A stretch of DNA of 63,820 nt, the filler included, from Reclinomonas americana ATCC 50394 (Eukaryota), in NCBI GenBank assembly GCA_048213135.1. It is 12 parts of 12 records of this genome, joined end to end, with 100 filler letters (N's around TTAATTAATTAA, not from the genome) between each part and the next. Parts side by side here need not be neighbours in the genome. Positions count along the whole stretch, not along the records: positions 41,834 to 53,622 come from PS015984.1; 11 more parts are not named here. The stretch is one strand, 5' to 3'. Positions within the stretch are counted from its first letter, which is position 1; the number at the start of each line of letters is the position of its first letter. Below are positions 45,543 through 49,432 of this stretch, one piece after another. Under the pieces are notes generated by a model that saw only the letters and a program-made list of their open reading frames with translations, did no database searches and was not told the origin of the DNA. A program made the position numbers and the translations under genes.

Positions 45543-48500
45543 GCGTCTTCAAGTGACAGAATACCTCCTCCCCGCCGGCCGTATGCGGAGTCGGTATGAC
45601 CAATGCACATTCACGTGCAGGCAGTGTTCAGAAACAGTTCTCACCTTTGCGTGTTTGTATGTAGGCTGTACCATCGAGTGACAGAGTTCCACCTCCCCGC
45701 CAACCTCCTGTTGTTTCGGTTTGTCTCCCTGCTTGGTGCGGAAGCGCTCAAAGCATCATTTCACACCATCGTGTGCACAGGAGACACCATCGAGTGACAG
45801 AGTTCCACCTCCCTACCAGCCGCATGCTGTTTCGGTCTGCCCGTCTTGCAAACGCGCAAGAGCGCCGCAATCAACAATCATCCGCCCCTCACTGTTTCGT
45901 GTTGCATGCAGGCGGCTCCATCGAATGACAGGGTTCCACCTCCCTATCAGCCTTATGTGGATACAGTTCGTCTCGCTTGCTTAATCGTCACAGTGTGAAT
46001 CTCGTCTAATCTCTATCTGACAGGCGACACCACAGTCGGCGGCCGCGCCCCCACCAGTTACGCCAAACACCAACGAATCGCCAGTCGCAAGGACACGAAA
46101 TGCTGACACATTGGTGCGATCGGTGCGCAGGAGGAGGACTTGCACAAGGGGCGAGAATTTGCAAGAAGCGGGGAGCGCGTTGTCGATCTCAGTTCCGCGT
46201 CCAAGGAGTCACAATCAATGCGCGATCGCACCCTGTTGGTCGAGGTGCAAGTCGCTCGCGAGCTGGCCAGTGCTCTCGCCGCTCTGCACGACGGAGAGTT
46301 GGCGCACGGCAGTCTCTACCCGCACGGTGCGTACTGCGATAAATTCACACTTGTTTGCGATGCGTTGCGCTTTGGCTCATGTCCACGTAGCCGTGCGTAT
46401 GCGTCATCCTGGTATTTTGCGCGACGGTGGCAACCTTGGCGGAGGACCGTGGTGTCAACTTATTTTGGTTGGCAAGCCGTGGCGCACCATCGCCAATGAC
46501 GCCTCCAAGGAGCACATGATCCTTCTGGATCCGGAACTGTTGCGCCTGGAGGAACAACGTCAGGTGAGAGTGAATGCACAGATTTGGCAGAGTGCCGCCG
46601 ACCTGAGGAGACTGTACTCGTCGTCACTCACGCCGAGCGTGTATTGCAGGTTGCCGATATCACTGACATCATGCGGACCGATGTCTTCCAGTTTGGTCTG
46701 TTGCTACTCTTCATTTTTGCGCATGTCAACCTGTGGCAACTGGTGCCGCAGTGGCTGGCAGAACAGAACTGTGAGAATCGGACTGCCGACGCGTTGGAGA
46801 CGGCTTTCCGCAACCTCCTGCCGTCGGTGGTGACGAATGCGCCGATCTGCCTGCGGAAACTGATACAGGAGTGCATGTTACCTTTATGCAACAAAGCCTA
46901 CGGCTCCTGGGCCGACGCCACGGTAGAAAGCCGACCGTCCATGCGACGTATCTATGAGAGGCTCTCCAGGATGGCTCTCGATGTGCGCATGATTGACGCC
47001 GTCAAGGATACTGGTGAGCGTCGCCCGATTTGTTAGTGGTGCACGCACCCTGCTCATGCACCTGTTTGTGTGAGCACAGTCGACGACGGAAGTGACGATG
47101 TGGCAGCGTGGTGCGTGCCAGTAGTGAGGAATGATATGTGTAGATGCTCATTGTAATAACTGTTGGCACAGCTATCGGAGACGCAGAGATGTGCTGCGAC
47201 ATCGATTGCAGGAGGTCGTTGGTCCTGTGTTACAGCGCCTCTTTGAATCTCTCTTGGCGCGATCCGAGTGTGCGGGATTGGATGTCGCCAAGCTGGTGGA
47301 TGGACGCACGAACAATCGGTTGGTACCTGGAGTGGTTGCTCGCTTTGAGGTTTGTTTTTCGTTGATCGTCATTCATATGCATGTGTGCAGATACTGCAAG
47401 TGGAGAAAGTATAATCGCGGCAAGCGTTTCCTCTTTGTCGATGCCGACAGCAGCGGGCATTTTACGCGGTTTGCAGCCGCCCTCCAGGCTGGAGAACCAA
47501 CGCCAGCTCTCGATTTGGCTTTGATCATCAAGCTGCTGCTGAAGGCCTACTTTGTACTCATGTCGGTCCCGGATGAGTCGCTGGGCAACGCTGAGGTGCG
47601 CCTTCACCCAGAGTCGCGGAAGGACGTGCTTGCCATCTGTGTTGTCGACCTGCTGCCAGAATCCGTGGTATGTTCGATGCCGACTGAATTGTATCCATTG
47701 ATATCTCTCACCTTTCTTGTCATTTGTTGCGGGTGCAGGAGAAGCGACAGCTGATAAAGTCGGTGCGCAGCCTGCGAAATTTGATCTCGCACTTGGCAAA
47801 AGGCGATCTGCCGTTCACCCGTGACTTTTACAACGACGCCAATCGAGCGTTGCGCGCATGTGTGGAGATGTTTGGCAACGCTGACGACCTTGTATGCTTC
47901 GACGACATCCCTGTCGGTGCGCAAAATGACTCCTGCCTCAGTGCCACGCTCACGCAGGTGAGGACTCATATCTGCCTGCAGAATACCGACCGCGCAATCC
48001 TTTCGTTGAGCTGCTTGACGGCAACTTTACCACTCTGATGGCCTCCATCCCCTTGATTGCAAGCGAGTATGTGACTGAGAGAGACGATGCTGGTCTTTTC
48101 CCTAATAGTTGAGTGATGCTGTGCATGTTGCGCCAACTGTAGCTTTGGTGCTGATTGTTGTGTTTCAACCAGCTCGTTCTGCTGTACGTCTCGTCAATGT
48201 ACGGTCGCCGAACGGGACGGTGACCACGAGAGTGTTAAAGACTTTCCGGGGTGTTAATGCACCCGAGGAGACATGCAGAATGGAAGCGGTGGTGATGACA
48301 TACTTGCAGTTGCGTGGAGATGTGTTTGCGACTCTTGTGTGGGGGCGCTGACAGCGAGTGATGCGCAGTGGTGTGGACGAGTGGCATCCGCACATTGTTC
48401 GATGCTACGGCATGAGTCATCGTGGGAGGGAAGGACTGGGACTCGTGCTGGAATCAGTTGGTGGCGATCATCCGCTGAATTTGGAACAGTGGCTCAGCGA

Positions 48501-49432
48501 GTTCCGCGACGTCCCACTCTCCACGGTATGTTGCCTTCTGGCATTTCTGTTCGACAGGAAGGTTTCTTATGCATTCCAACCAGCGTGTGCACGTTGTTTG
48601 GCAAGTGTGCCAAGCCTTGGCGTTTGTGCATTCAAAGCGGCTACTCCACCGCGACTTGAAGACCGCAAGTTACATCGCATGTGACCTGCCTGTGTTGTTA
48701 GATCTCTGTTGACACTGCACGGAACAGATGTCTTCCTGGATGTGACGGATCCGCGGCTGCCAGTGGCCAAGCTCGGCGACTTTGGGCTTTCCACAGTGTC
48801 GGCCAGTCTCACGCAGCAGTCGTTTATGGAGAGAGTTGGCACGGCGCGGTTTTGGTGCCCTGAAAACTGTCGAACATGCGCCGACGAGGACCTCGTCGAA
48901 GATCCGCTGGTGAGAAGACACCTATTCCACCTCTGTGTGGACGTGCGTATGGTTCTCTTACTGTGCATTTCAGTCGCTGGTCTACAATCACCGGTCTGAG
49001 GTCTTCGTTCTGGCCACCATCCTGTGGTGCGCTTGCACGCGGTCCATCCCGTTCGCCGACATTCCAGATGGCCCACAGGCTGACATGCTGGTTACGTTTA
49101 TGTGCTGTTCCCGCACCGCTCGGCTGGTGCTCCACTGCTCATTCAGCCCGCAGATTCGTGACCGTATCGTTGACGGACGGAGGGCTGCAACCGTGGAGGA
49201 GTTGGGACGACTTCCTGCTGGTCTCGGCGTGCTGATCTCTCGCTGCTGGGTGAGCAATGGCGCCGCTGATTCTGCCATATGTGTCGCGCCATCTGACAAG
49301 TTTTCCACGTTTCACTTGTCGCAGCAACAACGAGATGAGCGGCCGTCCACGGAGGAGGTGGCAGAGGAACTCTATGCGTGCTACCAGCGGTGCCTCGCGA
49401 TGGAAGAGCGCGGCGCATCGGCGTCGAGGTAG
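45543..49432 (+). CDS. Pro-rich repeats - pseudokinase - HEPN-like domain - protein kinase (5' partial)
   Basis: Four repeated exons; degenerate kinase (ALAALHDGELAHGSLYPH, LDPE, DVFQFG, LIQEC, RPSM); LDLALIIKLLL...VRSLRNLISH (47775-47792); kinase VLK, HPHIVRCYG, HRDLKTAN, AKLGDFGLS, GTARFWCPE, ISRCW, ERPST. Confidence 0.8.

Follow-up and report, generated by a model that had tools for sequence, protein, structure and literature searches.

In this study, we describe a cassette of two building blocks, a domain of about 200 amino acids (hereafter domain X) followed by a protein kinase, that stands behind different front ends in two genes of the microbial eukaryote Reclinomonas americana ATCC 50394. 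Both genes lie in a stretch of 63,820 nucleotides (the window) from assembly GCA_048213135.1, in which 12 parts of the genome are joined end to end. The protein encoded by the gene of primary interest (copy 2) is organized as Pro-rich repeats, the C-lobe of a pseudokinase, domain X and a C-terminal kinase. Its paralogue on the opposite strand (copy 1) opens with ankyrin repeats and a coiled coil. Comparison of the two gene models supports a common descent of the whole cassette with exchange of the front end. Domain X resembles HEPN domains at a single helix, which carries a candidate ribonuclease (RNase) active site.

Common descent of the cassette

The spliced copies of domain X are identical in 47 of 163 alignment columns (~29%). 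Their local alignment scores 108, and none of 2000 shuffles exceeded 61 (phmmer pairwise E 1e-11). The homology that the initial annotation had proposed by eye thus survives formal alignment. The motif pairs it quoted are all present in six-frame reads where it had placed them, including the canonical R-N-x3-H of copy 2 and the hinge motif common to the two downstream kinases. Taken alone, the middle exons align between the copies (BLASTP E 3e-6) and the motif exons give no BLASTP alignment; the homology signal is therefore distributed across the whole domain. The exons measure 147/277/178 nt in copy 2 and 147/271/178 nt in copy 1, with the same phase series (2, 2, 0, 1, 1, 2) in both. The duplication must be old, since no similarity at the DNA level is left between the copies. 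No third copy of X was found within the window.

The kinases tell a comparable story. Of the five introns in the copy 1 kinase, three coincide exactly with copy 2 introns in position and phase, a fourth is off by no more than one alignment column and the fifth by no more than three; copy 2 has two introns beyond those of copy 1. The kinases of two neighbouring ankyrin-kinase genes have none of four introns in common with either cassette kinase. A quick kinase tree joins the two cassette kinases (Shimodaira-Hasegawa-like approximate likelihood ratio test 89), copy 2 having a long branch; built on 4 eukaryotic and 23 bacterial rows, it samples too few kinases to prove the sisterhood raised earlier, and the introns are better evidence of kinship than the tree. 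Because the exon lengths and phases of X are conserved and the kinase introns are shared, X and the kinase form one inherited unit with different front ends. The earlier proposal of a HEPN-kinase unit with interchangeable fronts is borne out as far as the unit is concerned, while its HEPN identity is moderately supported.

The model of copy 2 runs through 936 codons without an internal stop or gap, and all 21 of its 21 introns are GT-AG introns of 41-86 nt, in a window in which the 33 modelled introns measure 41-407 nt, mostly 56-86 nt. The interval 46131-49432 alone contributes 15 exons and 793 aa and ends at the same stop as in the initial annotation. We regard copy 2, as modelled, as a real, intact and intron-rich gene. 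Both gene models are splice predictions from sequence, low scores occur at several donors, and one exon join within X had initially been misplaced and needed rescoring, all of which weighs against this view and would fit a pseudogene or a chimaera produced by the splice model. Such an explanation is very improbable in the face of the stop-free frame, the uniform GT-AG introns, the lack of an internal gap and exon lengths that agree with those of the paralogue. The join in question had been drawn as a 41-nt intron (47350-47390), whose frame shift suggested a pseudogene or an assembly error; it was rejected, as the donor at 47319 restores both the frame and the exon length. When all donors were scored, this phase-2 donor fell within the range of the others. 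Mis-splicing at 47350 is possible, because its donor score (9.1) exceeds that of 47319 (6.3).

Table 1. Positions of the two cassette genes, their parts and adjacent features in the window
Feature	Position	Strand	Details
Fusion gene, copy 2	45237-49432	+	22 exons, 936 aa, sole stop terminal
Upstream exons absent from the initial annotation	45237-46056	+	7 phase-0 exons, ~143 aa, 22% proline
Pro-rich exon duplicates	45543-45965	+	four exons, 51-54 nt, spaced 116-131 nt
Pseudokinase, C-lobe only	46131-47013	+	exons 46131-46326, 46391-46563, 46650-47013
Linker exon, short	47080-47110	+	in-frame join, pseudokinase to domain X
Domain X, copy 2, HEPN-like	47172-47916	+	~200 aa; exons 47172-47318, 47391-47667, 47739-47916
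First inner intron of X, copy 2	47319-47390	+	72 nt, phase 2
R-N-x3-H motif, X of copy 2	47775-47792	+	candidate RNase active site
C-terminal Ser/Thr-type protein kinase, copy 2	47958-49432	+	8 exons, stop 49430-49432
Paralogue, copy 1	3206-7274	-	13 exons, 907 aa; ankyrin repeats, coiled coil, domain X, kinase
Domain X, copy 1	4935-5782	-	exons 5782-5636, 5579-5309, 5112-4935
R-H-x3-H motif, X of copy 1	5082-5065	-	
Pair of close paralogues arrayed in tandem with copy 1: ankyrin, coiled coil and kinase, no X	7869-10337, 11849-14670	-	intron set differs
Degenerate WD40 gene	42694-44300	+	weak Pfam matches; no stop seen before the 771-N gap
N gap	44389-45159	.	771 N; hides 5' end of copy 2 gene

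Domain X and its probable HEPN fold

The HEPN consensus is described as R-phi-x3-H, with D, N or H as phi, placed at a helix end, in a domain whose activity, metal-independent RNA cleavage, requires dimerisation. Both copies of X fit this consensus (phi N or H), and their motifs are aligned with each other. On a Swt1-HEPN profile of 27 natural bacterial domains, all over the Pfam cut-off (two rows below it were excluded), X scores 8.7 bits in copy 1 (0 of 1000 shuffles) and 4.1 bits in copy 2 (4 of 1000), with R and H placed on the R and H of the family. The two motif windows (11.8 and 7.3 bits) surpass all 59 of 59 background R-[DNH]-x3-H windows (best 1.9) on the same profile and keep this lead without the R, phi and H columns; the comparison covers one reference family and a small background, 28 windows coming from the 63,820-nt stretch and 31 from bacterial open reading frames. 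In a ranking of 1404 six-frame open reading frames, the motif exons of the two copies take places 2 and 4. The ESM Atlas gives four named look-alikes for the motif exon of copy 1, namely DUF4559, HEPN_DZIP3 (twice) and HEPN_Swt1 (scores 0.87, 0.85, 0.76 and 0.75). Domain X thus probably has a HEPN fold, and we infer that it belongs to the Swt1/CXorf38/DZIP3 group. Copy 2 has a second motif of this kind, an R-D-x3-H at 47185-47202, which copy 1 lacks and whose score does not rise above background.

Several observations weigh against this assignment. The Swt1-HEPN reference family was picked after the motif had been seen. The two best Atlas rows are unnamed viral clusters, the named ones stay below 0.9, and the query was copy 1; the piece of copy 2 gave no usable match, from a query that contained 24 intron-derived residues. 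A Pfam scan of the exon pieces found no HEPN family, including PF18738, PF15112 and KEN. A profile-profile alignment of X to Swt1 (hhalign) spans 19 columns at a probability of 6.9%, and X matches the Swt1-like HEPN family (PF18731) over the motif helix, not over the whole domain. With the motif masked, the full-length alignment of X to the Swt1 profile, made with an earlier splice model, yielded no signal, and X scored below real non-HEPN windows there. Single-exon structure models of low confidence (predicted local distance difference test 44 and 59) place beta strands in the middle exon, unlike the all-helical HEPN domain; Foldseek and VIA-align searches with them gave nothing above background and no HEPN among the listed rows, a result that is uninformative either way.

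The same observations would fit an orphan alpha/beta domain unrelated to HEPN, whose motif would be an amphipathic helix that arose by chance and passed to both copies. Shuffling X yields a motif of the R-phi-x3-H type in ~7% of cases, the two copies do not count as independent evidence for it, HEPN support is limited to the motif helix, and strands are predicted in the middle exon. We consider an orphan domain unlikely, since the context of the motif on its own beats the whole background set, the sole named Atlas look-alikes are HEPN clusters, and CXorf38 provides a precedent for an insert within a HEPN domain (PMC3710099).

That X is an active RNase is evenly poised. The initial annotation had argued for catalysis from the retention of R and H. 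This argument does not carry, as the motif block (7 of 13 identical) ties with two other blocks for best conserved and two sequences cannot show selection. X could instead be HEPN-derived and non-catalytic; it would then dimerise or bind RNA and thereby activate the kinase, the real output. The tie in conservation is in line with such a role, as are the existence of inactive HEPN versions, among them Swt1 itself in the account given by PMC3710099, and the preservation of the kinase in both copies with HRD and DFG. A non-catalytic X is nevertheless rather unlikely given that R, a polar phi residue and H are kept in both copies at their low overall identity, and that the N-lobe is more damaged in the kinase of copy 2 than in that of copy 1. 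The C-terminal kinase of copy 2 is itself likely active: HRD and the catalytic Asn of the HRD-x-K-x-x-N loop are intact, as is DFG, and it scores 75 bits on the kinase profile. Against its activity stand a divergent N-lobe that has a candidate beta-3 Lys and helix-C Glu but that the profile does not align, without a Gly-rich loop in the model, and the dependence of this N-lobe model on an unconfirmed donor at 48093.

On balance we favour, with about even confidence, a lineage-specific family whose members share one fixed cassette, a HEPN-type domain followed by a kinase, behind varied front modules, and would act as dimer-activated RNases. X would be inactive as a monomer and would cut RNA once the R-phi-x3-H motifs of two chains form one composite site. 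Pairing of chains would be under the control of the front modules, which would respond to infection or stress; the kinase would adjust the signal or pass it on. The proposed gating, its trigger and a part in immunity are deduced from the HEPN precedent and from a neighbourhood of ankyrin-kinase and WD40-repeat genes; the divergent N-lobe of the kinase weighs against the proposal.

Homologue searches returned no further members. Protein searches gave 0 of 2543, 0 of 400 and 0 of 386 candidates, HMMER with the first two-thirds of X had 0 matches at E 0.001 among 1.84 billion representatives, genome and metagenome contigs offered 535 and 587 candidate stretches of which none matched, plasmids gave no match, and PDB sequence searches gave chance rows only. 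These blanks are weakened where the query included the 24 intron-derived residues (the 2543-candidate, HMMER and contig searches and one PDB search); one structure model was affected as well.

The half-kinase and the front end of copy 2

The pseudokinase ahead of X has HGS in place of HRD and no DFG, and its N-lobe is essentially absent, because only ~35 residues precede helix E. Against a profile built from 23 bacterial kinases it reaches 11.6 bits, a score attained by 0 of 1000 shuffles. Its PDB matches at E up to 10 are in three of three cases kinase-type (one kinase and two JAK1 pseudokinase sequences; E 0.17-1.8, none significant alone). By these signatures the half-kinase is kinase-derived, with its catalytic motifs lost. 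The degenerate kinase that the initial annotation placed before X is therefore real in origin, but it consists of a C-lobe only and does not form the N-terminus. A kinase fragment without an N-lobe cannot form a normal ATP/nucleotide pocket. Most likely, the half-kinase would offer a protein-binding surface (brake, dimer contact or bait) on a Pro-rich tether, rather than act as a nucleotide-sensing pseudokinase.

Coding extends at least 143 codons 5' of position 46130. In the four Pro-rich exon duplicates the flanking splice sites have been copied along, which marks an exon-level tandem duplication, and two of the four contain a PPxY motif. PPxY motifs bind WW domains. An automatic exon chain for this upstream region was discarded, as its product was implausible. 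The earliest Met of copy 2 is at 45327, and the open frame continues upstream of it to the N gap. Across this gap lies the degenerate WD40 gene, which may stand on its own or supply the actual front of copy 2.

The pseudokinase had been proposed as the sensor of copy 2, a role that loses ground now that it is a lone C-lobe with further coding that runs upstream into the gap. The half-kinase could instead be a spacer or a decayed duplication, with the true recognition module upstream, possibly in the WD40 gene across the gap. Seven further 5' exons with a frame open to the gap suit this arrangement, as does a WD40 gene that reaches the gap without a stop and has donor-like sites at its end. We regard it as possible and yet doubtful, as the Met at 45327 could start the gene by itself and the frame of the half-kinase is open over three exons.

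Relation to known systems and surroundings of the cassette

The closest setting for X is offered by the HEPN expansions of the Swt1, CXorf38 and DZIP3 type, which are described from animals and Capsaspora and have ankyrin, NACHT and LRR domains as partners (PMC3710099; PMC9646362; PMC8260672). The Swt1-like, CXorf38 (DUF4559, PF15112) and DZIP3-hRUL138-like (PF18738) families have an R-x4-H motif helix of the same flavour as X, and the group shows lineage-specific expansion with swapped ankyrin, NACHT, LRR and WD40 partners and a proposed immune role. X differs in length, with ~200 aa against 115-144 profile positions in these families, and in the lack of a Pfam HEPN match on exon pieces. The fusion partners named for these families in PMC3710099 are TPR, RING, ankyrin, CARD, NACHT, DEATH and LRR, a list in which the protein kinase does not figure. 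The DZIP3-type and CXorf38-type expansions are widely taken as immune RNases, in the accounts at hand likewise on the basis of the motif.

In the list of the same source, only KEN (RNase L/IRE1) is paired with a eukaryotic kinase, with the kinase first (PMC3710099). Copy 2 is similar to RNase L and IRE1 in that one chain joins a kinase fold and a HEPN-type motif to what would be a sensor module, and in that a pseudokinase precedes the HEPN-like domain. It differs in that an intact kinase follows X, X is internal, the upstream pseudokinase has no N-lobe and no KEN match is seen. RNase L/IRE1 is an analogy and not a family to which the cassette belongs. No HEPN-then-kinase cassette was found in the literature, in a search that was incomplete. 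If the favoured reading is true, a HEPN-like domain and a downstream kinase with swapped fronts would have arrived at the RNase L/IRE1 design a second time and independently, and the paralogues would form a natural panel on the wiring of sensor, RNase and kinase. A bolder version, to which we give little more than tentative credit, is that a microbial eukaryote independently built an RNase L-like immune effector from a HEPN RNase and a kinase in reverse order, as a fixed cassette that would have received ankyrin, LRR, WD40 or half-kinase heads many times over. The half-kinase of copy 2 would then be an integrated bait that frees the RNase once a kinase inhibitor from a parasite or virus binds it.

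WTK1/Yr15 is reportedly a tandem kinase-pseudokinase resistance protein of plants. In RWT4, pseudokinase and a partial kinase duplication are described as helping effector binding (10.1101/2024.04.30.591956). The likeness to such proteins, drawn in the initial annotation, holds for the architecture, a kinase and a pseudokinase in one chain. It does not extend to two adjacent full kinase folds, as the ~200-aa HEPN-like X lies between them and the pseudokinase is half a domain, a lobe-less fragment with no normal nucleotide pocket. With its half-kinase, copy 2 would extend the candidate baits beyond plants. As the RNase identity and the sensor role of the half-kinase are predictions, the weight of this one finding is reduced.

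The kinases of the two ankyrin-kinase paralogues without X, in tandem with copy 1, presumably are IRAK/Pelle-like, judging by their appearance. Two more ankyrin-repeat genes of the same family, apparently kinase-less, lie at 10723-11388 and 14588-15487 (-), in a birth-and-death array. Two other WD40 genes were seen: one at 25935-29333 (-) has many near-identical repeats (Pfam), preceded by what looks by eye like a pentapeptide-like stretch and a NACHT-like NTPase, and its N-terminus is cut by a spacer at 29334; the other, at ~58459-60090 (+), is a second degenerate propeller gene with weak Pfam matches.

The contigs are joined at 11 places (e.g., 41734-41833) by 100-nt spacers, made of two 44-N runs that flank a 12-nt all-frame stop linker. 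The 40 kb reported between the two cassette copies is an assembly distance, since 8 of these artificial spacers and 3 larger N gaps intervene. At least two genes appear, by eye, to run on across a spacer. A D123/CDC123-like ATP-grasp gene (Pfam D123) at ~40620-42326 (+) does so, by eye, across the spacer at 41734-41833.

The window further contains an orphan open frame of 215 codons at 24789-25433 (-), without a match to Pfam or to the X and Swt1 profiles, and, by eye, a tandem duplicate of a small, many-exon, Cys-rich gene at ~36560-37800 and 38150-40400 (-). Genes for tRNA-Glu(CTC) and tRNA-Arg(CCT) lie at 25819-25891 and 36274-36345 (both -), and a non-coding-looking stretch of ~90 nt, recognized by eye, occurs twice, at ~15690-15770 and 24670-24770.

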